A stretch of 11,057 nucleotides of DNA from a virus. The translations under genes were made by a program, and so were the position numbers. This document shows positions 1 through 11,057 of this stretch, piece by piece. Within the stretch, counting starts at the first letter, position 1. Each line of letters opens with the position of its first letter. The notes beneath the pieces are model-generated. The model saw only the letters and a program-made list of their open reading frames with translations. It did not search any database and was not told where the DNA came from. The stretch lies in UHGV virus genome UHGV-0152719. The stretch is one strand, 5' to 3'.

Positions 1-88
1 GCATACATCGCCTTTATGAAAAGACAGGAAAAGATAAAATTTAAAAACAGTACATTACGAATGCTCAGACCTATCGTTTAAAGGAGTC

Positions 89-110
89 GCAATACACACT
101 GCAATACACG
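89..110. repeat. Two tandem copies of GCAATACAC(A/G) motif (left-end partner of the 10865-10918 repeats)
   Basis: gcaatacacac at 89-99 and gcaatacacg at 101-110; same motif and orientation as the three copies at 10865-10918. Confidence 0.5.
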
Positions 111-1019
111 ATTATTTATAAGATGAGCGGCATCCGTCATAAAGCTGGTGGATGCTTTTTCTATGCATATATGCACAGTTTTAGTGGGCGTTAATGTCGA
201 TATAGGGATCCCCATATCGAGATTGGATACCTGGCTTTTTTCCGGTTAACCTTTAATCAGGCTGGTGGGCTTTACCTGTTTTGTATGAGCGGTCATCATG
301 ACCATGCCATAACAAAAACCCCATATTCGTGGGTTTTCTGTGTTGTGGCTATTCTGCCGTTGCCGTGCTGGTGGATATTTCCGGTATGTGGCTCACCATA
401 TCGGCATCAGGCCCACCAGCGTGAAGCGTTTTTCATTTTTCGCGGGTAAGCCCCAAAATCTGGGTGTTACTCTTACTACCCAAACTACGGGTAGTTTCCG
501 TAGTTTCTGGTCGAGTTGCAGATCTGCAACTCACCCACCAGCTAACCCATTTTTGGGCCGTCGGGAATATCAACCAGTTACTGCCAGTGATCTGGATGTT
601 CTGCAGTCTGGCTGGTGGCTGGACGCTGATTTTTTGCGTACCTGTATCGGTTTCGTATCCGGTGGATGTTCTGCGTACTTTTCAGAGGCGGATTTCCGCC
701 CACGCCATTCTGGACCAGTTGAAGGGGCCGAATACATCACCGGATTTAGGGGATGTTCCCGGCCTCCTCAATTTGAGGATTGTGGAAGAATCAATGGGTT
801 AGTCTTACTGTCCCTCATTTCCTGCATTGCAGGTTTTCGAAATAATCAATGGGTTAGGCCATCGTGCAATTTTGCACTTTGCCAGCCAGCGCAATGTTGC
901 GTTATCGGGAATATCAGCACGTTACCGGCTTTCGTCATGTTAAACACTGGCCAGGCATCGCCATTCTTATCAATAAAATCACCAGGCTCAAAATTGAGCT
1001 TTGCTTTAATCTCAGCAAG

Positions 1020-1304
1020 TTACCGCCGTAACCGTTCCGGCTTCTTCCACTGGTAAGTTTTTTTCTCGCTCTCCTGATACATCGCCACACGTCGACGGTA
1101 TGCCAGCAACTCTAATACCCTGGTTCGTATGTCGCGCATATCCACGCCGTTAAGATCGATACCGTCACAGCGCATCACCTCAGCCACCACACGCGCGTAA
1201 TTTTCAGCGGTGACGGTATCAGGCTGCATGGCCTCCTGTGTGCCAGCCTGCTGGCTGATTCCGGTAACGCGGCGGATTAATCCCAGTAGTTCGGCTTCTG
1301 TCAT
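1020..1304 (-). CDS. Hypothetical protein (94 aa), last gene of the packaging operon
   Basis: ORF directly downstream of the Nu1-like gene on the same strand; ATG at 1304; no recognisable family; weak Shine-Dalgarno. Confidence 0.45.
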   Translation of the reverse strand: MTEAELLGLIRRVTGISQQAGTQEAMQPDTVTAENYARVVAEVMRCDGIDLNGVDMRDIRTRVLELLAYRRRVAMYQESEKKTYQWKKPERLRR

Positions 1305-1315
1305 AGTGCGCTACG

Positions 1316-1858
1316 TTACTTGTCTTTATCCGGCTGAAACTTATCAGGCACATTTCCGGTAGTTTCCATCAGATAATCGGACAGTATTCGCGGGATGTTT
1401 TCATCAAGTTTTGTGCATGCGTTACAGGCTCTGACAACTTCCTTTTTAAGTCCATCCAGCATAGCGGGGGTAATCTGTGGGAAGCGCCTTTGCATGGTAA
1501 GCGGCAAACTGTCCATGATTGAAGAAATCTGACTCGCCAGTTTTGAAAGCACATATATACAAAATTCCGTACTAATAACGTCGCCGCGTTCGCGCTCGTT
1601 TTTAAGCTCCTGCGCCTCCGCCTGCGCTGTCAGCAATCTGATCCTGACTCGCAAAAGTTCATCATTATCAATCTCGCCTTTGTCGTCTGTAATCTGGTTA
1701 ATTGCATTGCTAACCCGATTGTCTATTACGCTGGCAACATCATAAAACGCCTCGCGGCCTTTACGTTCAACGGGAGTCACTCCCCACTTGTCGAACGCTG
1801 TCGCACTTACACGGCAGCTTTGCGCCATGTTTTTTTTGTTCATCAGGTACGATTTCAT
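1316..1858 (-). CDS. terS: Terminase small subunit, lambda Nu1-like
   Basis: C-terminal two thirds (LTAQAEAQELKNERERGDVISTEFCIYVLSKLASQISSIMDSLPLTMQRRFP...IPRILSDYL) closely parallels lambda gpNu1 (LTRAQADAQELKNARDSAEVVETAFCTFVLSRIAGEIASILDGLPLSVQRRFP...IPGLLSEYI); N-terminus (MNKK...FDKWGV...EAFYDVASVI) resembles the Nu1 winged-HTH more loosely. Start uncertain: GTG 1870, ATG 1858 (GGGGA SD-like upstream, chosen), ATG 1843 (aligns with Nu1 MEVNKK). Confidence 0.8.
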   Translation of the reverse strand: MKSYLMNKKNMAQSCRVSATAFDKWGVTPVERKGREAFYDVASVIDNRVSNAINQITDDKGEIDNDELLRVRIRLLTAQAEAQELKNERERGDVISTEFCIYVLSKLASQISSIMDSLPLTMQRRFPQITPAMLDGLKKEVVRACNACTKLDENIPRILSDYLMETTGNVPDKFQPDKDK

Positions 1859-1968
1859 CAATATCCCCACTTAAGTAATGTTTCAGGTTGGTGTGTTGGT
1901 GTTATCTTTCCCTTTTTATTCATAGAGATAGAGCGAAAAACAAAACCACCACCAGCACCCGAAAAAGG

Positions 1969-2012
1969 CTCATAAATAGCGAAAACCCGCGCGCCTTCCG
2001 CCCCGTAGCCTG
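1969..2012 (-). other. Lambda-like cos site (cosN-equivalent plus adjacent conserved flank), upstream of terS
   Basis: Minus strand reads caggctacg-gggcggaaggcg-cgcgggttttcgctatttatga; lambda cos as recalled is caggttacg-gggcggcgacct-cgcgggttttcgctatttatga. 22 contiguous nt identical downstream of cosN, left half of the 12-nt cosN identical, right half differs at 6 positions. Position (about 150 bp upstream of terS start) mirrors the lambda cos-Nu1 arrangement. Confidence 0.6.
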
Positions 2013-2059
2013 CCGGATCGCCGGAAAGGACCCGCCAGCCAGAACGGGCCCTAATTTCA

Positions 2060-2443
2060 TCAACCAATCAACTTATAGCGACCATCCCGTGCATTGCGAC
2101 GTACACGCTCAATCTTGAGGCATAGCGCCGCATCTGGCTTTTTTGGGACAGGTACGCGGCAATATTCAGAAGATCGAGGAATATTGTTTATCCAGTCGAT
2201 CACTTCACTTAAATACCAGGCCTTACGCCCTTCCGTAACCTGTACGCGTTCGGGGAACTCTCCGCGAGCCTCAAGGTTTAGCAATGTGCGACGGCTAAGG
2301 GTAGTAAGTTCCATCACCTGATTCATATCAACAAGGCGTTCACTTAAACGCATTTTGTCAGCAATAGCCTTTAATTCCTCTACTGCTGGATCCGGATACA
2401 TCATTTCGGCAATTGGCTTAAGGTCATTGTAATGATTCTGCAT
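2060..2443 (-). CDS. AlpA-family (excisionase-like) helix-turn-helix DNA-binding protein, 127 aa
   Basis: Motif LTTLSRRTLLNLEARGEFPERVQVTEGRKAWYLSEVIDWI matches the AlpA/phage-excisionase HTH pattern (G-FP ... W..SEV..WI); ATG at 2443 preceded by AAGGGGGA Shine-Dalgarno. Confidence 0.6.
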   Translation of the reverse strand: MQNHYNDLKPIAEMMYPDPAVEELKAIADKMRLSERLVDMNQVMELTTLSRRTLLNLEARGEFPERVQVTEGRKAWYLSEVIDWINNIPRSSEYCRVPVPKKPDAALCLKIERVRRNARDGRYKLIG

Positions 2444-2454
2444 TGTATCCCCCT

Positions 2455-2796
2455 TTACACACGAGCCAGCGGCTGAACAGAAATACCTGAGCCAACAAAC
2501 GCGGCAACCTTTGCCGACAGTTCTTTTACAGACTCAGGCCAGTTCAGAGCATCAACATTTAAAACGCCTGTCTTATAAACCTGTGCCTGTGTTTTTTTCG
2601 CTGTGTCGATTTGTACAGCGGAAACATAAACCGCTTTACCTACGCTCGAACCATCCCATACCACCAGTGCACCTGTTGCATCTTCCTGCATCAGTGGCGT
2701 AAATGCAGGAATTACCCCTTTATTAGCTGAAAATATCCCCAGCGTAGTCACCAGTGCTTCAGTGCCAGCCATGAGTTCAGTGTAATGAGTAGCCAT
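2455..2796 (-). CDS. Head decoration protein, lambda gpD-like
   Basis: 113 aa; TPLMQEDATGALVVWDGSSVGKAV and NWPESVKELSAKVAAFVGSGISV parallel lambda gpD [24 protein letters not shown] and [33 protein letters not shown] Shine-Dalgarno before ATG at 2796. Confidence 0.8.
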   Translation of the reverse strand: MATHYTELMAGTEALVTTLGIFSANKGVIPAFTPLMQEDATGALVVWDGSSVGKAVYVSAVQIDTAKKTQAQVYKTGVLNVDALNWPESVKELSAKVAAFVGSGISVQPLARV

Positions 2797-2805
2797 TGCT
2801 CCCCC

Positions 2806-3852
2806 TTAGCCAATGCGAACGGTAACAAAACGATTGATGCGGGCCGGTATTGGCTGTGGTGCTGAATGTGTCTGCACATATTCAATAGCCGGATCACCAG
2901 GCACAATATAGTTTTTCGGTGCAAGTTCGGCTTTAGTCAGCCCCATTCGGATTAGCTCCGGATCCTGAATACCGCCATAGGCGACAATCCCCTGAAGAGC
3001 CGTATTGCCAAGCACCATCAAATCAGGATCAAGGAAATGTTTTTCAGTTCCGTCCTCGTCGGTATAACGCCCGCTGTATACAACAATCGCAACATCGCCC
3101 ATATACCCTTTAAAACTCACCGAATCACCAAGGTCTTTAAGAGCCGTTTCCAGTTCGGAATTAGAACCACGACGGGTATCCAGAGCCTCTTTTATCGCTC
3201 TGAATGAACGGTATTTCTTCCATACATTACCGCCCATAATGATGATATTAGTGACGCCCTCACTAAATTCTGCGTAGCTCTCAATATCATCATTTGGATC
3301 AAAAGTTTCTTTATCCTTACCTGACCACTCAGCACCGCCAGACTGAGTGATGATATTTTGTGGTTTAATATTCCAGTCCAGCTCATAACGTTCAATACCA
3401 TCGCCCTCAATGATATTTTTCCCCGTTGTGATTGCCTGAACGGCAAGCCATTCAATACGTGCACGAATAGCTTTAGCCTGATTTACAATCGCCTGTTTAA
3501 CTTTAATATTACGCGCTCCAAAAGCATTGTATTGCTCAGGTGATACACCAGCAGGGCGCACAGCTAACTTATTTGGATCAATGCTGCTTTTCGGCTTCAT
3601 ATAGCCTGGACGAATTGTTTTTGATTCGTACCCTTCGTCACGTGAAACTTTACTACCCACCATAGGAGAACAAAACGCTGCAATTGGGATATTTGGATCG
3701 TCGATTGTATCAAGAATAATATCGCGCGATTCAAACATTACCGAGCGAGTGAAAAACAAACTGGTAAACAACGCATTTAATTTTTTTTGCACATCTTCAG
3801 CATTAGCCACCTGCACAAGCTGTGTAGGCGAATATAAATCAACCATACTCAT
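2806..3852 (-). CDS. Major capsid protein, lambda gpE family
   Basis: Strong similarity to lambda gpE: NIITQSGGAEWSGKDKETFDPNDDIESYA ... RSFRAIKEALDTRRGSNSELETALKDLGDSVSFKGYMGDVAIVVYSGRY vs lambda NITQSGGTEWSKRDKSTYDPTDDIEAYA ... RSFKAVKEKLDTRRGSNSELETAVKDLGKAVSYKGMYGDVAIVVYSGQY. The ORF extends to 3933, but the MSMVDLY start (3852) matches the gpE N-terminus MSMYTT; the alternative ATG at 3846 has better SD spacing. Confidence 0.85.
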   Translation of the reverse strand: MSMVDLYSPTQLVQVANAEDVQKKLNALFTSLFFTRSVMFESRDIILDTIDDPNIPIAAFCSPMVGSKVSRDEGYESKTIRPGYMKPKSSIDPNKLAVRPAGVSPEQYNAFGARNIKVKQAIVNQAKAIRARIEWLAVQAITTGKNIIEGDGIERYELDWNIKPQNIITQSGGAEWSGKDKETFDPNDDIESYAEFSEGVTNIIIMGGNVWKKYRSFRAIKEALDTRRGSNSELETALKDLGDSVSFKGYMGDVAIVVYSGRYTDEDGTEKHFLDPDLMVLGNTALQGIVAYGGIQDPELIRMGLTKAELAPKNYIVPGDPAIEYVQTHSAPQPIPARINRFVTVRIG

Positions 3853-4017
3853 CCTCTTTACATTCATTACAAATAATTGTGAATATATTCTATTACCGAT
3901 GTCTGCTATGCGAATACATGCAACCAAGTGCAATGTTGTATAAAATATGCCGTAACAACTTCAGTGCTGATAATTCGTGTTAATGTATTTACTTCCTTTG
4001 GTTGGGATTTATGTAGC

Positions 4018-4057
4018 ATGCCGGAAAATCTATTTTTTTCCGGCATCTTTTTGTTTG
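4018..4057 (+). terminator. Hairpin plus T-tract (intrinsic-terminator-like) in the ssb-capsid intergenic region
   Basis: atgccggaaaa / ttttccggcat inverted repeat (4018-4046) followed by ctttttgtttg; the U-tract is on the plus strand, so it would stop antisense or convergent transcription. Function uncertain. Confidence 0.4.
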
Positions 4058-4063
4058 CAGAAT

Positions 4064-4486
4064 TTAAAACGGTATATTATCGCCGTACGGATCATCATTC
4101 CCCGACTGTTGTTTTGCCCTGTTCAGTGCGTCAGTGGCCTGCCCCTGCTGGCCTTTTTTGCCGCCCGGTCGCGCCGTTCGCGCACTGATTACGCTGTCTG
4201 CGATAACCTGCCAGCCCCGCCGCGTTTCGCCGTTCTGGCCTGTCCACTGGCTTACCTGCATGTTACCCGCCACGCTCACCAGTTCGCCTTTGTGGTGTTT
4301 TGCCAGTGCGTCGGCCTGTCTGCCAAACGCCAGGACGGATAACCACATCGTCGCCGTTCCGTCATCTGCCTGGCTGCACGGCAGGGGAACCGCCATACTC
4401 GCCATCGCCATTTGTGTCCCTTTGCTGGTGGTCTTTAACTGCGGGTCAGCCACCAGCCGCCCGTAAGCCGCTATCTGTGCTGTCAT
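4064..4486 (-). CDS. ssb: Single-stranded DNA-binding protein (SSB-like OB fold with acidic C-terminal IPF tip)
   Basis: WLSVLAFGRQADALAKHHKGELVSVAGNMQVSQWTGQNGETRRGWQVIADSV parallels E. coli SSB [52 protein letters not shown]; Gly/Gln-rich linker; C-terminus DDPYGDNIPF resembles the SSB DDDIPF tail. Start ATG overlaps the upstream gene's stop (ATGA). Confidence 0.7.
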   Translation of the reverse strand: MTAQIAAYGRLVADPQLKTTSKGTQMAMASMAVPLPCSQADDGTATMWLSVLAFGRQADALAKHHKGELVSVAGNMQVSQWTGQNGETRRGWQVIADSVISARTARPGGKKGQQGQATDALNRAKQQSGNDDPYGDNIPF

Positions 4487-4740
4487 GCTGTCTGCTCTCC
4501 GGTTTTAACATTGATGGTTGTCACCTGTTCCGCTTCGGCAATCTCCCGTTCTGTCAGCGTGGCAAAGTTTGCAGCCGCCGTTGTCATGAATGCGCTTATC
4601 AGTTCTGGATGTGCTTTCGCGTATCCTTCCCCGGCGTTGCGATCTATTGCCTTAATCGCCACCCTTAGCCAGTGTTCAGCCATATCAAGGGCACGGTAAT
4701 GTGGCTTTATATGTTTGTTCAGTTTTCCTGATGTGTGCAT
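4483..4740 (-). CDS. Hypothetical protein (85 aa)
   Basis: ORF with GAGGGGG SD-like sequence upstream of ATG at 4740; stop overlaps ssb start (translational coupling); no family recognised. Confidence 0.5.
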   Translation of the reverse strand: MHTSGKLNKHIKPHYRALDMAEHWLRVAIKAIDRNAGEGYAKAHPELISAFMTTAAANFATLTEREIAEAEQVTTINVKTGEQTA

Positions 4741-4786
4741 TTTTATTTTTACCCCCTCGTTTAAAAAGTTTTGAAATGTGGTGCAC

Positions 4787-5014
4787 CTCCTCTACCTCTC
4801 TACCTAATCATCTTTCAGGTCAGTAATGGCGCGGCTTTCAGATGGGTAGAGGGCTTTCGGGGCCCTCTACCCATCCTCTACCCGCCCCTCACAAATGACC
4901 TTAATCATGGTGGAGGAGGTAGAGGGCTTTTATTTGCCTTCTACCTGGCCCTCTACCTGCTTATCATATTGAATAATATATATTTATTTTCTTTAGGTAG
5001 AGGAGGTAGAGGGC
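4787..5014. repeat. Iteron array with AT-rich core: putative origin of replication
   Basis: Ten copies of an 8-bp motif in both orientations: CCTCTACC at 4789, 4864, 4875, 4950; variants TCTCTACC 4797 and TTCTACC 4939; GGTAGAGG at 4845, 4918, 4996, 5006; three carry the longer form GGTAGAGGGCTTT. AT-rich stretch 4958-4995. Sits immediately 3' of the primase-helicase gene. Confidence 0.65.
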
Positions 5015-5026
5015 TTTTGTCTAAAA

Positions 5027-6781
5027 TTATAAAAACGCGTCGCAATCCTCTGTTGTTGTCACATTGGTTTGCGTAAGTCCTTTAACCCTGCGCGTTATAT
5101 ATTCACATCCGTAAACTTTCGCCGCTGGCTTCATGGCCTTGCTGAAATCAGCCACGTTTAGCGGCTTGCTTCTGCCTGCGTATGCCATAAACGCCAGATA
5201 GACGCGGTAAAGGCTGTTTCTGGTCGTGTACTTCACGGAATCGCCACCGCCACCCATCATCAGGCCGCGCGCTTCCTCCAGAAAATTCAGAAACTGGCAA
5301 AACTCAATAACCGGATCCGTCTGTTGCTTTATCGCCAGTGCTTCTTCACCGTCGCGCTGTTCAATCAACAAATGTCGCGCCTTTTCTGGATCAGCAAAGT
5401 TTGCCAGCAATCTGCGGATAATCACGGGGATTTCAGCCGCGACCTTCTCCGGTAAATCCTTGTCCTTTTCTGCCTCGCTAACGATATTGTCGAAGCGGAA
5501 AATTACGCGACGACGTGACACACCTCCGGCCCGTTCGGTGAATATCATCGGGTTATTGTTGGTAGCCAGCACCACCGCCCTGATTACCGCCGTAAAACGC
5601 TTTTCATATTTCGGGTTTATTTCCACGGGGTCGCCGCCCGTGATTTTCTTGATGCCCGTGCCTTCGCCTGTATATTTCGGCTGGTCAGCCAGGACGATAA
5701 GACGACTCCCGACAACCTGAGCACGCCCACCAGCATCATCAAGCGAAGTCATTTCAGCGCTTACCGTGTTCTGTTTCCCTGCCAGAAGGCTGGCTATGTG
5801 CGTGAATGTACTCTTTCCGCTCCCGCCGTCTCCGGTGGCCTCAATAAACATCTGCCAGTCGTACCGGTTCGCCATAATCATGTACAGCGCGGCACATATA
5901 CGCATCATCTTGCGTGGGTCTTTTCCGGCTGCGTGATCAAGCCATTTATGAAAGTTTGGCGCGTTGTCGCGGATGTTCTCCCCTGGTGCTGGTGGCGTGT
6001 ACTCAATGCCGTTGTGCGTGGTGATCCAGTTCTCCGGCGAGTGCGGGGAAAATTCCCCCGTTTTCAGATTAAGCACACCATTAGTGAACGGTAGCAAATC
6101 GCCAGACGGCTCGCCCATTGGTTCGGCAATAACTTTTAACGCTTCCACGGCGTTATTGATTGCGCGCTTGCTGAAAGTGGCCCTGTGCTCTGAATAGATC
6201 GCCACCATTTCGCGGCTAAGTTCCATTGTGCTGACCGGACACCATACCCCGCCGCGCCATACGTGAACGATTTCACTTTCAGGATGTACGCAAACGCCAT
6301 CAAAGCGATCGGCAAGCAACTGCGCGCGCTCACTGTCCGCCATCTGCGAAAGTTGCGCCTTTTGCTTTACCGGAAGCTCAATGACCAGACCATCAGAAAG
6401 ATTCTGGCGTTCACGGGCCAGATATTCGCGCCAGTTCTGCACCTCCTGGCCGTGCATACCCTCAGGATAAAAATTTGCATCCTGTACGCCTGCTGCCGCC
6501 AGCTTCTGACCAATCGCCTTTATCATTACAGGCGCAAGATATCCGGCCCTGTATATGCGTGCTGATTTTCGGCCTTCCGGCACAATTTGCAGATTATCCA
6601 GTTCGGATAGCTGCTGCTCCCCAAGCCACACAGGAGGCTCATTATCTCCGGCCATACGCGCATCATGTTCCTGCCATTGTTTCGCGTGTGCCCAGGCATC
6701 ACTACCCGCAAAAATAATGACTTCTGTTCCTTTGTGTTTTATGCCGCGTGACTGCTGTTTTACGTTCGGTGCCAGTTTCAT
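5027..6781 (-). CDS. Primase-helicase, phage/plasmid P4-alpha-like (Walker A GDGGSGKS)
   Basis: 584-aa ORF; Walker A motif TGDGGSGKST followed by helicase-like region; N-terminal primase-like portion; typical P4/PICI pri-rep size and position next to iterons; start ATG overlaps upstream gene stop. Confidence 0.85.
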   Translation of the reverse strand: MKLAPNVKQQSRGIKHKGTEVIIFAGSDAWAHAKQWQEHDARMAGDNEPPVWLGEQQLSELDNLQIVPEGRKSARIYRAGYLAPVMIKAIGQKLAAAGVQDANFYPEGMHGQEVQNWREYLARERQNLSDGLVIELPVKQKAQLSQMADSERAQLLADRFDGVCVHPESEIVHVWRGGVWCPVSTMELSREMVAIYSEHRATFSKRAINNAVEALKVIAEPMGEPSGDLLPFTNGVLNLKTGEFSPHSPENWITTHNGIEYTPPAPGENIRDNAPNFHKWLDHAAGKDPRKMMRICAALYMIMANRYDWQMFIEATGDGGSGKSTFTHIASLLAGKQNTVSAEMTSLDDAGGRAQVVGSRLIVLADQPKYTGEGTGIKKITGGDPVEINPKYEKRFTAVIRAVVLATNNNPMIFTERAGGVSRRRVIFRFDNIVSEAEKDKDLPEKVAAEIPVIIRRLLANFADPEKARHLLIEQRDGEEALAIKQQTDPVIEFCQFLNFLEEARGLMMGGGGDSVKYTTRNSLYRVYLAFMAYAGRSKPLNVADFSKAMKPAAKVYGCEYITRRVKGLTQTNVTTTEDCDAFL

Positions 6782-7077
6782 TTTTTACCTCTGAATCCGT
6801 TAATCATGGTTTTCATTTTCTGGATATTTCCCCACGCTTTTTCCCTGCTGATGGGCTTACTGCGGGGTGCGGCATATACCAGGGAAAAATCACGCCGGAA
6901 CTGATAAACAGGCATCACGCAGTCATAGCTATACCCCTCACGGCGGTAAGTGATGCGCCGTTCTGCCACGCCTTTAATCGTTACCGTGCCGCCGTATTTA
7001 TCGCGGTAAATATCGCCGTTCATAAATTCAGGACGAGCGGGGCCGCTGGCATTAACACCAGTATTTTTCATTCCCAT
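6778..7077 (-). CDS. Hypothetical protein (99 aa), translationally coupled to primase
   Basis: ORF whose stop overlaps the primase ATG (ATGA); no recognised family. Confidence 0.5.
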   Translation of the reverse strand: MGMKNTGVNASGPARPEFMNGDIYRDKYGGTVTIKGVAERRITYRREGYSYDCVMPVYQFRRDFSLVYAAPRSKPISREKAWGNIQKMKTMINGFRGKK

Positions 7078-7081
7078 ATAA

Positions 7082-7324
7082 TTAAATTCCGTTTGTGTGG
7101 TGTTTTAATTCGTGAATTTTTTCTAACGCTCTGTTTATCTTGCTGGTCGAAATATCCAGTAATTCAGAAATGGCAAAGTTCAGTCTTGCCGTTGACTCGT
7201 CACGCTCGCAATTTGTCAGCGATTCAAACCAGACGTTAATAATCTCACTTACGGCATTGTTGTAAGATATTGCGCTTTGTGTGAGTTCATTCAGTTCATG
7301 AATCACGCGCTCATTATTGTTCAT
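7082..7324 (-). CDS. Hypothetical protein (80 aa)
   Basis: ORF with GAGGGAGAG Shine-Dalgarno upstream of ATG at 7324; part of a tightly packed minus-strand operon. Confidence 0.5.
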   Translation of the reverse strand: MNNNERVIHELNELTQSAISYNNAVSEIINVWFESLTNCERDESTARLNFAISELLDISTSKINRALEKIHELKHHTNGI

Positions 7325-7505
7325 TGTATTGCTCTCCCTCCGCTATTAACCATGCCGACACATTGCCGGAAAGACGCGCCAGAAGACTGGAAATCGCGGA
7401 TATATCGGCATCCGTAAGTTTGTCAGGGTATACCTCAAGAAGGCGGCAAATGATTTCAACCTGCTGCGCTCTTTCCGCAATTTCGTTTAATGTAAACTCC
7501 TGCAT
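7314..7505 (-). CDS. Hypothetical protein (63 aa)
   Basis: ORF with AAGGGG SD about 9 nt upstream of ATG at 7505; overlaps the next gene by 11 nt. Confidence 0.45.
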   Translation of the reverse strand: MQEFTLNEIAERAQQVEIICRLLEVYPDKLTDADISAISSLLARLSGNVSAWLIAEGEQYNEQ

Positions 7506-7508
7506 TAA

Positions 7509-7691
7509 TTACACCCCTTTTAATTCATGTACTGCTGCAATAATTACATGTGATAAACCTGCTTTACCGGAATTACTGATTAGTGAATCAATCGCCGCTT
7601 GCATATTAACGGCCTTCACGTTCTGCGTTATTCCGATGGTGTAGCCGCGTTTATTAACTGCACGGGCAAATACGCGGAAGGTTTTAAGCAT
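7509..7691 (-). CDS. Hypothetical protein (60 aa)
   Basis: ATG at 7691 overlaps the stop of the upstream 65-aa gene (ATGCTTAA); operon context. Confidence 0.45.
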   Translation of the reverse strand: MLKTFRVFARAVNKRGYTIGITQNVKAVNMQAAIDSLISNSGKAGLSHVIIAAVHELKGV

Positions 7692-7881
7692 GACTCACTC
7701 CCTGGCGGATTTTTGCAGCGAATACAGCAACACAACCGGACGGGCAACGGCTACGCGCTTCGCGTTCCGTCCAGGCGGTTACGTGGATGATTTGAGATTC
7801 TCCGGCACTCAGTGCCAGAAAACGCCACACAAAGGCCGTTTGTGTGTGTACAAGGTGTGGTATATGATTTACAGCAACCAT
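7684..7881 (-). CDS. Hypothetical protein (65 aa), first gene of the minus-strand replication operon
   Basis: Corresponds to the C-terminal 65 codons of the 356-aa track ORF; internal ATG at 7881 is preceded by a canonical AGGAG SD (ctAGGAGccgttATG); the remaining upstream part of the long ORF is low-complexity and antisense to better-supported plus-strand genes. Confidence 0.5.
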   Translation of the reverse strand: MVAVNHIPHLVHTQTAFVWRFLALSAGESQIIHVTAWTEREARSRCPSGCVAVFAAKIRQGVSHA

Positions 7882-8071
7882 AACGGCTCCTAGTTTACGT
7901 TGTTGGTTAGACGCCCCGTATGTGTTCCCAGCACTGCGGGGCGTTGCTCTTTGTATTTCAACAATCCTTTCGGTGTGTTTCATGTTATGAGCACATGAAA
8001 CACACGTCAAGGCTTTTTGTATTTCTTTTTTTGTGTATACTGAAACACACCGATGATTAGGAGTTTCAGAA
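7882..8071. promoter_or_regulatory. Divergent promoter/operator region between the minus-strand replication operon and the plus-strand regulator genes
   Basis: Perfect 12-bp inverted repeat gtgtgtttcatg-(9 bp)-catgaaacacac at 7973-8005 plus a third half-site tgaaacacac at 8041-8050; minus-strand sigma70-like promoter TTGACG (8005-8010) -17 bp- TAACAT (7982-7987) overlapping the palindrome; plus-strand -10-like TATACT at 8036-8041; 8-bp stem hairpin acgccccg...cggggcgt (7911-7944) in the minus-strand leader. Confidence 0.5.
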
Positions 8072-8377
8072 ATGGCAACGGCTAACAAAAACGCAAAATC
8101 ACAACTGACAACTGTCAGAGTCCCACTAGATGTTATGCAAGGGATGGAATCCGTTAAGCTGGACGGTGAAAGCAATGCCGGATTTATCGTAACCGCCATG
8201 CGCGGAGAAATAGCCCGCCGCCAAGCAGAAGGCAGCGGAGAAAATCCCCTTGTGTCGTCACTGGATGCCCTGGCTAAGGTCGAACAAATCGGCATCAAAG
8301 CAGCCGAGGAGATCGGGCAACTCGTCACCGTCGCGCGTGAAGAACTCCAGCGACGCAAGGTCAAAGAGCATGAATAG
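8072..8377 (+). CDS. Putative ribbon-helix-helix-like DNA-binding protein (101 aa), candidate island regulator
   Basis: AGGAG SD 8 nt upstream of ATG; N-terminal TTVRVPLDVMQGMESVKLDGESNAGFIVTAMRGEIARRQ fits a beta-strand/helix/helix Arc/CopG-like pattern (inference only); divergent from the replication operon. Confidence 0.5.
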   Translation: MATANKNAKSQLTTVRVPLDVMQGMESVKLDGESNAGFIVTAMRGEIARRQAEGSGENPLVSSLDALAKVEQIGIKAAEEIGQLVTVAREELQRRKVKEHE

Positions 8378-8434
8378 CCAATATCAGCGCCATAGTTTGA
8401 GGAACGCAGGCGCATTGCTTTACAGGACAGCACC

Positions 8435-8614
8435 ATGAGCGACACAGAATCAACCAAAACACCATCACCAACTCGTAAGAGACGACGCAAAAATATAGCG
8501 CATGAACATGAATCAGAAAGATTCGCACCTTGTTCGTTTGCTCTTGAGAAATTCCTTAAAGAGCACAGGAAAAAGCTCTCGTTGCAAACCTTGGAACGAA
8601 CCAAATCTGACTGA
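8435..8614 (+). CDS. Hypothetical small basic protein (59 aa)
   Basis: Not in the supplied ORF track (below its apparent length cut-off); ATG at 8435 with AGGA-like SD upstream, in line with the preceding gene and followed by an intrinsic terminator; contains a KRRRK basic stretch. Confidence 0.4.
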   Translation: MSDTESTKTPSPTRKRRRKNIAHEHESERFAPCSFALEKFLKEHRKKLSLQTLERTKSD

Positions 8615-8670
8615 TCACATTGCCCACCAGCCGCAAATGTGGCATTGTTGGTGATGCTTTTGTTTTCCCT

Positions 8671-8700
8671 TGTTCCCACTGGCGACCCTTTTGCGGTCGC
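8671..8700 (+). terminator. Rho-independent terminator of the plus-strand two-gene unit
   Basis: ggcgacc-cttttgc-ggtcgcc stem-loop followed by tttgttttg. Confidence 0.6.
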
Positions 8701-8710
8701 CTTTGTTTTG

Positions 8711-9289
8711 TCACTGAATGCGGTTACCAAAGTAAAACTCAGGCTGATATTCACGTATCAGCCTTTTTTCTTCTTCCTCCAGCTCACGCTTTTTGCGCTT
8801 ACATGCCTGTAGCTCCCTCCCCTTCTCGCTGGCACTTATTTGATATTGCTCTTTACGGCGGGAAAAATCCTGTAATGCACCCCACGGGATACCATAAGCC
8901 CCCGTTTTTCTGATACCTGGTATCACATTTCTGAATACCCAGTTACTGAAACGATGAGCAAATGTGCCCGGCGTCGTTGCTTTGCGGCTGCGGGCTATTA
9001 GTTTGTAGAAACCTGACTCAGAGATAATTCTCATATTCTGATTTCCTCCTGGGGTGTAAGTTAAATTTACTCCCTTTTCATCATCATCAAGCATCTGCAA
9101 CGCCGTACGCGAATTGGTTAGTTCCAGCGCAGCACAAACATCTTTTGCAACAAACCACGGATCGCCGTTCAGATACACCACACGAACGTTCACACTATCA
9201 AAGCGCAGAACGACGAGATCACGAATATCGCAGAATTTTTTCACTGGACGAGCGTACCCCTTGCCCGTCACGGCAATATTTTTATTCAT
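8711..9289 (-). CDS. Bro-N domain protein (phage antirepressor-like), 192 aa
   Basis: N-terminal region VVLRFDSVNVRVVYLNGDPWFVAKDVCAALEL...LQMLDDDEKGV matches the Bro-N/antirepressor N-terminal domain pattern; C-terminal charged coiled-coil-like tail. Confidence 0.75.
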   Translation of the reverse strand: MNKNIAVTGKGYARPVKKFCDIRDLVVLRFDSVNVRVVYLNGDPWFVAKDVCAALELTNSRTALQMLDDDEKGVNLTYTPGGNQNMRIISESGFYKLIARSRKATTPGTFAHRFSNWVFRNVIPGIRKTGAYGIPWGALQDFSRRKEQYQISASEKGRELQACKRKKRELEEEEKRLIREYQPEFYFGNRIQ

Positions 9290-9307
9290 CGCGTTTTTAC
9301 CTTATAG

Positions 9308-9333
9308 ACAAAAAACCCCTCGTGATGAGGGGT
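9308..9333 (-). terminator. Hairpin with flanking A/T tracts (bidirectional terminator-like) between alpA and the Bro-N gene
   Basis: cccctc-gtgat-gagggg stem-loop (9316-9332) with acaaaaaa on one side (a T-tract on the minus strand) and tattattt on the other. Confidence 0.5.
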
Positions 9334-9345
9334 ATTATTTACTGG

Positions 9346-9603
9346 TTATTGCTGTTTTGTTTTTCCAGGTTTCCATCCAGGATGCCACTCACCACGGATC
9401 CATGCCTGAACCTCTGAAAGTCGATACCCTGCAGCACGTTCACCGATCTTGATACGTCGCGGGAATTTACCTGCCTGCTCCATTTTCCAGCGTGTTGAGT
9501 TTGCCAGCGTGGTAAGTGCTATGCACTCTTTTTCACGAATGAACCGATCAATGTCCTTCATTGTGCGCAAATCGTTTTCATCAACAAGAGAATAAATTGC
9601 CAT
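9346..9603 (-). CDS. alpA: AlpA-family transcriptional regulator / excisionase-like protein
   Basis: 85 aa with HTH IALTTLANSTRWKMEQAGKFPRRIKIGERAAGYRLSEVQAWI typical of AlpA (prophage CP4-57 regulatory protein family); AAGAGG SD; immediately downstream of the integrase. Confidence 0.8.
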   Translation of the reverse strand: MAIYSLVDENDLRTMKDIDRFIREKECIALTTLANSTRWKMEQAGKFPRRIKIGERAAGYRLSEVQAWIRGEWHPGWKPGKTKQQ

Positions 9604-9604
9604 A

Positions 9605-10846
9605 TCACACCACCTCTTTATTAAGCTCGATAACGTTGTTGTTAAATCCTGCTATCGTATTAAGGTAATTAACCCACATATTAAGCACCTCAAGTTTTTT
9701 CTTTATATGCCTGCTTTTATTGTAAACACCAGCAACCCCTTTCACTTTATGACCTAAAAGAAGTTCGACAATATAAGGATCCGCCCCCATATCATTAAGC
9801 GTAGTGGAAAATGTGCGCCTGAAATCATGTATGCACCACAAGCCATTAGTATCATGACCAAGACGCCTGCATATTCTGTTTGCAGCCCCTGTTATTGTCG
9901 CCCTTTGCAAAGCACAACCGACAACATAACCGCAATTTTTTGTTTCTGCGTAAAGATTAACGATCCATTGTTTTATTCCGTCAGGAACAGGCCTTACTAT
10001 AGCCTCCTTGTTTTTGCTGTGCTCTTTTGGGACTGTCCATACCCAGTTTTTTAAATCCCATTCGTCCCAGGTGGATAGCCTCGCCTCCTGCTGTCGGCAA
10101 CCAAACACCAGGCAGATAACCATTATTCTTCGGTTATATATTGATGACAGAGTTAGCAAATTATTACCGTAAGCATAAGACCATACATCAGCGGTTTCAT
10201 TGATATTAAGAACGCGATCCCTTATACCGGATGAGCGCCCGACATAACTTACGTTAATATCTCCAAAGGGATCGCACGCGATGTATTGCCTGACGCGACA
10301 AAAACGCAACGCCTGTTTGATATCAAGAAAAATTGCACCAGACATAACAGGCGCATTTTTTTTGATCCTGTCAAAGACGGTAAGCCATGTGTGTAATTTG
10401 CACTGTTCTATAGCCATATCACCGATATAGGGGAAGATATGCTTTTCAAATCGTTTTATTAAATATTCATGCTCTTTTCTGGCTGTTGTGGCGTGATTGT
10501 CGTACCAGTAAAACAGCGCATCCCTTACGGTCACTGGTTGCATAGTTTTTTCGGCAGCAAGTTTTATTTGCCTGCGGGGGTCCAGATTTTCAGCCAGCCA
10601 TTCACGGCACTGATCACGCATGCGCCTGGCCGTTGCAAGAGACATGTCAGGATAGCGACCAAGTGTAAGCCATACCGGAGGGGATTCCCTGCCACCAAGA
10701 CGATAGTAAAAAACAAAGCTGATCCCCCCAACCATGCTTACACGCACAGACAACCCGCGCCCATCCGCTATTGTTTTTTGTTTGTCCTGCCGTTTTCCGA
10801 CAAGACTCTTTAACAGTTTGTCACTGAGTTTGTTTTCAATAGCCAT
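9605..10846 (-). CDS. int: Tyrosine site-specific integrase, P4-type
   Basis: 413 aa; N-terminal P4-integrase-like arm-binding region (MAIENKLSDKLLKSL...GRGLSVRV); catalytic-domain motifs including HDFRRTFST and the GVAGVYNKS tyrosine region; GAGGG SD upstream. Confidence 0.9.
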   Translation of the reverse strand: MAIENKLSDKLLKSLVGKRQDKQKTIADGRGLSVRVSMVGGISFVFYYRLGGRESPPVWLTLGRYPDMSLATARRMRDQCREWLAENLDPRRQIKLAAEKTMQPVTVRDALFYWYDNHATTARKEHEYLIKRFEKHIFPYIGDMAIEQCKLHTWLTVFDRIKKNAPVMSGAIFLDIKQALRFCRVRQYIACDPFGDINVSYVGRSSGIRDRVLNINETADVWSYAYGNNLLTLSSIYNRRIMVICLVFGCRQQEARLSTWDEWDLKNWVWTVPKEHSKNKEAIVRPVPDGIKQWIVNLYAETKNCGYVVGCALQRATITGAANRICRRLGHDTNGLWCIHDFRRTFSTTLNDMGADPYIVELLLGHKVKGVAGVYNKSRHIKKKLEVLNMWVNYLNTIAGFNNNVIELNKEVV

Positions 10847-10864
10847 TAAAAGCCCTCAAGAGAT

Positions 10865-10918
10865 TTGCAATACACACCCACCCCGATCGCCAATTTGCAA
10901 TACACATTGCAATACACA
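10865..10918. repeat. Three direct copies of TTGCAATACACA motif upstream of int (partner of 89-110 repeats)
   Basis: ttgcaatacacac 10865-10877, ttgcaatacaca 10895-10906, ttgcaatacacaaa 10907-10920; same motif and orientation as the two copies at 89-110; candidate att-arm / recombination-directionality or int-promoter operator sites. Confidence 0.5.
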
Positions 10919-11057
10919 AAACCGCGAAAAACTGGAAAGGTGATGAACGGTCATCAAAAGCATGGAAAACGACATTCCAGACGCAGCAAGGGTTTCAGTG
11001 GAGTTGGCGAACGATGCGGGCAACTACGGTGAGATGATAGACATAAATCGCCTTCAC

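Follow-up and report, generated by a model that had tools for sequence, protein, structure and literature searches.

The stretch analyzed here, the 11,057-nt viral genome UHGV-0152719 (referred to below as the window), is recognized from its sequence as one complete helper-embedded phage-inducible chromosomal island (HE-PICI), a satellite that extends over ~10-11048 and lies within the portal gene of a lambdoid prophage. Its integrase-distal end, positions 120-1019, is a non-coding tail, and the dominant selected feature of this tail is a dense cluster of Chi octamers (GCTGGTGG) in both orientations. Chi is the signal by which the host nuclease RecBCD is brought under control; at Chi, degradation stops and RecA is loaded.

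The assignment to the HE-PICIs was made because both ends share an att core and because a doubled motif is found at the published distances. The att core ATCGCCTT is common to positions 6-14 and 11044-11052, and the doubled motif GCAATACACA.TGCAATACAC is located at 89-109 and 10897-10917, ~81 and ~132 bp from the att center. These are the distances given for the doubled tgTGTATTGCantgTGTATTGCa motif that forms the HE-PICI signature (Tommasini et al. 2023, PMC10111431). E. coli genomes carry the same element at ~95% identity, sitting between two portal-gene halves of a lambdoid prophage. In two such relatives (loci L003 and L004), the N- and C-terminal portal halves flank the island, and terminase and head genes then follow on the same strand. 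The window ends align to the portal-gene junctions of relatives, with the insertion in the same orientation as the late gene.

All genes of the window but one lie on the minus strand. As listed in Table 1, the order of zones (tyrosine integrase and AlpA, Bro, primase/SSB replication, late), read from PHROGs and from the RefSeq annotation of relatives, matches that of HE-PICIs, and the element itself shows no difference from those described (Tommasini, Mageeney & Williams 2023, PMC10111431). A non-coding tail, a Chi cluster or palindromes are not described in that paper, the text of which contains no relevant use of 'Chi', 'noncoding' or 'intergenic'.

Table 1. Features of the island, listed from the integrase-distal end (positions in the window)
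Feature	Position	Strand	Remarks
attL junction, end of C-terminal portal-gene fragment	1-17	-	att core ~ATCGCCTT at 6-14
Doubled TGTATTGC motif, candidate arm-type site of HE-PICI attP	84-109	-	repeat families D9, D15; partners 10862-10917
Predicted terminators	129-156, 320-333, 606-624; 864-847	+; -
Six tail Chi, within 144-618	144, 261, 367, 611; 413, 535	+; -
Chi site 1	144-151	+	inside hairpin-plus-T-run 129-156
Tail palindrome (TP) copy 1	197-220		consensus CGATATGGGGATCCCCATATCG, one mismatch; one Chi flank decayed
Chi site 2	261-268	+	in module 179-305, carried also by non-HE PICIs
Bidirectional intrinsic-terminator-like hairpin (A-run, stem, T-run)	315-337		predicted
Inverted Chi pair enclosing TP copy 2 (380-408)	367-374; 413-420	+; -
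M4 core	458-532		hairpin CCCCAAAATCTGGG; AAACTAC-GG-GTAGTTT with 9-bp tandem duplication; 20-bp palindrome GAGTTGCAGATCTGCAACTC
Chi (535-542, -), hairpin H1 and duplicated 3' end of 94-aa gene	535-585	-	repeat family D1
Chi in rare module 586-751	611-618	+
Two tandem ~55-nt units, variable hairpin and conserved ..AATCAATGGGTTAG	751-857	+	repeat family D2
Second duplicated gene-end and H1 unit	882-927	-
Last island gene, 94-aa protein, phrog_1561 (unknown function)	1020-1304	-	last before tail in relatives of three PICI types
Nu1-like small terminase (TerS)	1316-1858	-	37% identity to lambda Nu1, E 4e-36; phrog_57
Lambda-like cosQ/cosN	2034-1959	-	84% identity to lambda over 76 nt; directly upstream of Nu1-like terS
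Second AlpA-like 'excisionase and transcriptional regulator' (phrog_2790)	2060-2443		between head-decoration gene and cos
Head decoration	2455-2796	-
Major capsid protein	2806-3846	-
SSB	4064-4486	-
Primase	5027-6781	-
BRO-N antirepressor	8711-9289	-	small genes next in order, before primase
AlpA-like gene	9346-9603	-
Integrase	9605-10846	-	PHROG assignment

Positions 120-1019 encode no protein. As the initial annotation of the region had stated, no minus-strand open reading frame (ORF) of at least 60 aa is present, and the only long plus-strand ORF (340-1056, 238 aa) is not credible. Pfam and a tblastn against phages gave nothing for this ORF, its PHROG match was at chance level (E 0.26), and the frame crosses sequence modules that are reordered or missing in relatives. 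Neither a gene nor a frame-broken alignment along the region was found with Pfam, PHROG and phage tblastn, a set of searches that did not extend to BLASTX with general protein sequences.

The Chi sites had been missed in the initial annotation. Chi is the commonest octamer of the tail, with 6 copies vs. 3 for the next octamers, and also the top octamer of the whole window, where 12 exact copies (1.09 per kb) in unrelated flanking contexts compare with 0.38 expected from shuffles. It was evident that the enrichment is restricted to the exact octamer: all 24 one-mismatch variants together occurred 11 times in the window and 0 times in the tail, compared with 12 and 6 exact copies, respectively. 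The clustering of 6/12 window Chi within 475 bp corresponds to P ~6e-4. Given 0.217 Chi per kb in E. coli (Zheng et al. 2025, PMC12315714), six sites in 0.9 kb correspond to P ~7e-8.

The enrichment was also observed in relatives. In 32 non-redundant tails (31 kb), 78 Chi were counted, yielding 2.5 per kb; Chi was again the top octamer and was present in 31/32 tails. Independent origins are evident from the flanking contexts of these sites, 15 of which were distinct, vs. 9 for the runner-up octamer. A meta-profile of 41 non-redundant contexts peaked at 4.25 Chi per kb in the tail, with flanking bins mostly at 0-0.7 per kb.

Chi polarity in the tail is ordered. Read in the direction of TerS, the top strand supplies the proximal sites and the bottom strand the distal ones (42 concordant pairs vs. 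4). In the 3 kb adjoining the tail, 39 Chi were found in gene direction and 5 in the opposite one; since coding-region Chi mostly run with the genes, the non-coding tail may be free to hold the opposite orientation. Many homology breakpoints between islands fall at Chi or a few bases past it (370, 420, 537-542 and 275-280).

The last observation would be expected as well if Chi enrichment were a passive by-product, with Chi stimulating exchange and surviving it, so that Chi-bearing modules spread among PICIs without benefit to the satellite. The highly mosaic structure of the tail and the duplication of modules at one point are in line with such a process. It does not, however, account for the ordered polarity (42 vs. 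4), for the restriction to exact octamers or for the contrast with Chi-free helper DNA of the same cell, and RecBCD action at the sites would still be required. This explanation is considered unlikely.

A further switch in Chi polarity exists upstream and is not explained by gene strand. In loci L006-L082, Chi located 4.5-6 kb upstream of terS are mostly opposite to the genes (52 vs. 5; 41 clusters). The zone of opposite Chi spans the N-terminal part of the primase, DUF4222 and icd-like genes, and about half of its Chi lie inside co-oriented ORFs.

Helper prophage late-gene DNA flanking HE-PICIs contained 0 Chi, vs. ~1 per kb in the satellites. The Chi-free helper DNA amounts to 5.5-7.9 kb for each of L001, L003 and L004, the three E. 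coli loci, and the IMG/VR helper flanks (L020-L054) sum to ~92 kb, many of these loci being redundant. Among the window genes, no Gam, Red, Abc, annealase or other anti-RecBCD PHROG was found; SSB alone was present, and several small proteins were unassigned.

According to PMC12315714 (and PMC3784561 as cited there), Rec-less lambdoid phages are Chi-rich and anti-RecBCD-bearing ones Chi-poor. The combination of a Rec-less, Chi-rich satellite with Chi-free helper DNA fits this dichotomy and mirrors it. The island resembles phages of the LLS class, which are without recognizable recombination or anti-RecBCD genes (PMC12315714; Bobay et al. 2013, PMC3784561, as cited there). In both, Chi is the most frequent octamer, clustered and denser than in the host (1.09 per kb here, compared with 0.54 in LLS and 0.22 in E. 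coli; Zheng et al. 2025, PMC12315714).

In contrast to the LLS phages, the element is a satellite, with half of its Chi in ~0.5 kb of non-coding DNA. Its Chi occur in both orientations, with a polarity switch, in place of right-end clustering of a single 'active' orientation; the inverted Chi pair encloses a palindrome, and the surrounding helper DNA is Chi-free. Derivation of the tail from Chi-rich right ends of helper phages was rejected as a candidate origin, no phage homolog having been found.

On alignment, the tail is a mosaic of short conserved modules reshuffled among PICIs. Comparison of the window with 84 loci, four from E. coli and 80 from IMG/VR, delimited modules at 1-180, 179-305, 289-448, 440-585, 586-751 (rare), 752-906 and 882-927, the presence and order of which vary between islands.

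The region had initially been described as dense in palindromes and short repeats, and this description was borne out on sequence 1-1500 and by string searches. The 20-bp perfect palindrome (513-532), the 12-bp palindrome TGCATATATGCA (164-175), GGTCAT-C-ATGACC (291-303), the near-palindrome centered on GGATCC (197-220), the tandem gtagtttc-c-gtagtttc (491-507) and the terminator-like hairpin AAAACCC..GGGTTTT (at 315-337) are present. Both direct repeats are real, but their coordinates had been 1-2 nt off: atcaatgggttag is located at 790-802 and 845-857, and tggatgttctgc at 593-604 and 663-674. Palindrome density was indeed beyond chance, perfect hairpins being roughly fivefold enriched over shuffled sequence, with 17 hits (stem >=6, loop <=8; ~10 distinct) in the tail. 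In 300 dinucleotide shuffles the mean was 2.07 (sd 1.67, max 8) and 0/300 reached 17, while other 900-bp segments of the same sequence yielded 0-7. Transcript-end hairpins, terminators and protein-binding sites are candidate roles for these palindromes.

TP is conserved in 26/32 tails; in one relative it is fully symmetric (GGTGATCACC). The Chi on the top strand begins 16 nt ahead of TP, and the one on the bottom strand lies a few bases beyond it; homologous Chi-TP-Chi modules were found in 8 distinct tails, with Chi-to-Chi spacers of 38-47 nt. At Chi site 2, TTAATCAGGCTGGTGGG was invariant in 8 variants, though the bases directly upstream vary.

The M4 core is the most conserved module, near-invariant across 43 distinct copies and found in 718/5426 complete E. 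coli genomes. In both contexts read, it adjoins the 94-aa last gene, with other terminases and insertion sites. One base is missing at 508-509 (tttc-tgg vs. tttcatgg) in the window and in its 100%-identical IMG/VR twin (L005/L219); this base, the site of which lies within ORF 340-1056, is present in all other 40-odd M4 copies. Two M4 cores, 434-436 bp apart, were observed in the IMG/VR islands L216, L235, L256 and L287, which indicates that a tail module can duplicate in tandem.

The 3' end of the 94-aa gene, together with H1 and a Chi-like GCTGG.GG, occurs in three copies (1037-990, 927-882 and 585-535); insertion of DNA has therefore recurred at a single point, directly past the stop codon. 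The pairing of H1 is kept with different sequences: 83% of cells were paired, 3/6 pairs change on both sides, and the covariation score was reached by 4/500 shuffles. Compared with most relatives, the window carries an extra 81 nt (928-1007) directly past the 94-aa gene's stop codon. An imperfect 18-nt gene-end duplication (910-927, 1008-1025) flanks this insertion, which has its own hairpin, GCTCAAAATTGAGC, at 986-999.

A gene fragment was recognized in the first of the two tandem units, a 49-nt roi/antirepressor segment ~92% identical to phage roi genes. Frame +1 of 751-807 reads GCSRPPQFEDCGRINGLVL, corresponding to Roi/antirepressor residues 39-57, and the segment contains roi's internal palindrome CCTCAAATTGAGG. 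The hairpins of the tandem units differ and are equally good (CCTCAAtTTGAGG and CCTGCAtTGCAGG, and CCCCCAAtGGGGG in relatives). The units at 765-857 share their sequence with codons ~41-57, an internal segment of phage roi/antirepressor genes; if they are transcribed from the sense strand of the island, their RNA could act against helper roi/antirepressor mRNA as antisense. The tandem-unit module (765-857) was found at >=80% query cover in 245 E. coli genomes, at unannotated sites among the matches listed.

The initial suggestion of a decayed cargo gene thus holds for a 49-nt (19-aa) fragment and not for an ordinary frameshifted pseudogene. Extended to the whole tail, it would make the region a graveyard of decayed cargo or late genes, with repeats and Chi as functionless leftovers. 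Besides the match to Roi, the 3'-end copies of the 94-aa gene scattered through the tail and the dynamic nature of PICI late zones (PMC10111431) agree with this. However, the rest of the 900 bp is without protein-level similarity (Pfam, PHROG, phage tblastn), and no nucleotide homolog of the tail except the 49-mer was found in 50,697 phage records. Moreover, decay cannot yield 6 exact Chi in 475 bp or 15 independent Chi contexts, and the M4 core is obviously constrained. Decay as the general explanation is very unlikely.

Conserved hairpins could also mean that the tail is mainly a transcribed structured RNA, either the 3' untranslated region of the late operon on the minus strand or a small antisense RNA from the plus strand, with Chi incidental or secondary. 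Serial hairpins would then terminate or stabilize the transcript, or act as a regulator. The near-invariant M4 core folds well on both strands (z-scores of -4.7 on the plus and -2.9 on the minus strand), H1 keeps its pairing directly past the stop codon, and the tandem hairpins at 765-833 vary in a compensatory way. Terminator-like hairpins lie at 129-156, 320-333 and 606-624, and predicted intrinsic-terminator-like sites (G+C-rich hairpin and T-run) number 4 vs. 1.5 expected. A minus-strand transcript of the 49-nt roi segment would run antisense to the roi mRNA of the helper.

Several results speak against a structured RNA. Rfam 15 gave 0 matches at gathering score in the whole window and none credible in 1-1400 at E<=10, where the best sub-threshold scores were 11-16 bits vs. 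thresholds of 40-100; a tRNA/tmRNA scan of the sequence gave none. The P4-type immunity RNAs (Rfam C4, isrK), small structured RNAs of enterobacterial satellites, were matched neither at gathering score anywhere in the window nor at E<=10 in 1-1400, and their known location is the Bro zone, where they were reported for some PICIs (PMC10111431), not the tail. A single weak promoter-like site, directed outward (140-111), was found, fewer than expected from shuffles. G-U wobble points to different strands for different hairpins, symmetric palindrome changes are equally expected at protein-dimer sites, and the 6 exact Chi vs. 0 one-mismatch variants are left unexplained. A mainly RNA-based role is possible but doubtful.

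Protein-dimer sites are themselves an alternative, in which the palindromes would be operator-like sites for dimeric satellite or helper DNA-binding proteins and the tail regulatory or attP-accessory. Candidate proteins are the two AlpA-like regulators, integrase accessory factors and a replication-termination protein, and the sites would comprise TP (197-220 and 380-408), AAACTAC-GG-GTAGTTT, the 20-bp palindrome and TGCATATATGCA. The presence of TP in 26/32 tails, including the fully symmetric GGTGATCACC, the TTGCA..TGCAA core common to several palindromes, the adjoining att arm sites and the two AlpA-like winged helix-turn-helix genes of the island are consistent with such a role. On the other hand, TP and M4 modules are not integrase-specific, because they occur with different integrases and insertion sites (near phoQ, near thiM, inside gpA), and at 190-520 bp from the att core the sites are farther out than arms typically reach. 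The operator-like role is put forward only tentatively. The phrog_2790 AlpA-like gene (2060-2443) is additional to the alpA adjoining the integrase.

A packaging role for 120-1019, also proposed initially, is contradicted by the cos homolog found 1 kb away (2034-1959, minus strand), directly upstream of the Nu1-like terS in a lambda-like arrangement. The cosN equivalent GGGCGGAAGGCG, at ~2003-1992, differs from lambda GGGCGGCGACCT at 6/12 positions, and no cosN-like sequence occurs in 120-1019 at up to 3 mismatches. The tail could act as a cos/pac accessory with cosB-like R sites, given its GTTTCC-like tandem at 491-507, its place after the terminase small-subunit gene and the location of cos near the island end in some other PICIs (PMC10111431). 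The gtagtttc tandem, initially likened to the cosB R-site core, is however a 9-bp duplication missing in some relatives, and PICIs whose terminases are unrelated (P27 and DUF1441 types) carry these modules too. A packaging signal is already largely refuted and scarcely credible.

As in E. coli PICIs (Fillol-Salom et al. 2019, PMC6739421), the island cos has a divergent cosB. Compared with the PICI cos systems of that study, the island has its own Nu1-like TerS, and its cos (1959-2034) lies outside the tail. No Rpp-like protein was recognized here; the 94-aa last protein, much shorter than the PICI Rpp proteins (144-153 aa), was ruled out as an Rpp by size and by family (phrog_1561). An exact Chi is present at 1949-1956, immediately downstream of cosN, in lambda's cosB position, and is kept in many relatives, ~97 nt upstream of terS.

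A likely replication origin was located at 4780-5020, directly downstream of the primase gene, with at least 10 iterons (CCTCTACC/GGTAGAGG) in both orientations and an AT-rich stretch at ~4965-4995. A second replication site in the tail, comparable to P4 crr, was rejected: the iteron CCTCTACC/GGTAGAGG is not among the tail's frequent octamers. A TerS-protein scan of genome contigs gave no confirmed relative, and a 16-mer scan of 596 Gb of genome contigs gave only chance matches in unrelated phyla, the pattern being too short.

Of the roles initially suggested for the region, recombination sites stand, through the six-site Chi cluster and the adjoining attL arm and not through the features then named; packaging does not, and a gene remnant does so only as the 49-nt piece. 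The tail probably functions as a two-way element for RecBCD control and recombination, interspersed with terminators and hairpins. We infer that RecBCD acts at the tail Chi sites and that the satellite benefits from this action.

Linear satellite DNA would be exposed to RecBCD from either end, whether as DNA newly injected into a Gam-less cell, as rolling-circle tails or as cos-cut molecules. Entering from either side, RecBCD would meet several correctly oriented Chi within a few hundred bases, and with more than one site in each orientation, recognition would be very likely in both directions. Recognition would end degradation and load RecA, protecting the 11-kb element, and RecA-dependent recombination could convert monomer circles into the multimers required for cos packaging. 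The same hotspot activity may have placed module borders at Chi and made the tail mosaic.

Several points weigh against this function. Chi orientation in the window as a whole is mixed, 6 each way, so the lambda rule of one active orientation clustered at the right end does not apply. A two-replichore polarity model, with switches at the ori and in the tail as the terminus, failed on 32 full islands, in which polarity runs T, B and again T before att, so reversing once more toward the integrase. One clade (L041, 12 loci) has a 1.5-kb tail without Chi beyond the last gene, and Chi counts in the family are inflated by shared module ancestry, although 15 contexts are distinct. Gam made by the helper would render Chi irrelevant in the helper-driven lytic phase. 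Finally, the palindromes are not explained by Chi function, and a separate explanation is therefore needed for them.

A more specific role may be considered for the Chi-palindrome-Chi module (367-420; paralogous remnant, 179-268), namely that of a dedicated break-and-recombine or fork-arrest site. After a break or a stalled fork at the 22-bp palindrome, outward-moving RecBCD would meet oriented Chi within 10-20 bp, with back-up Chi further out, and RecA loaded on both sides would recombine circles into multimers. In E. coli chromosomes engineered by the Leach laboratory, Chi arrays reportedly flank a palindrome-induced break and face inward on both sides. In the tail, too, a palindrome is flanked by Chi that face inward from either side, as would best suit a break at the palindrome. 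In contrast to that system, the natural palindrome is only 22-29 bp long, well below the length of palindromes known as SbcCD substrates, and a dedicated break site is regarded as distinctly unlikely. If true, the module would be a self-contained, host-powered multimerization device, with the helper keeping itself Chi-free.

The HE-PICI element is already known, while the two-way, palindrome-associated Chi cluster of its tail appears to be undescribed in the searchable literature, where a search combining Chi with PICIs or satellites gave general reviews only. The cluster is common to several PICI types and represents a variant of the known 'Chi-rich, Rec-less' strategy. The survival of satellites in the face of host nucleases, and their formation of multimers without recombination genes of their own, have barely been studied. 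A two-way Chi cluster, set against the Chi-free helper DNA sampled, suggests that RecBCD is put to use by satellites, in contrast to helpers, which evade or block it, and the 'no Rec module, high Chi' rule would thereby be extended from phages to their parasites. The Chi cluster could also explain how PICI ends became so extremely mosaic, and Chi density, together with the M4 and TP modules, could mark these ends in genome annotation.

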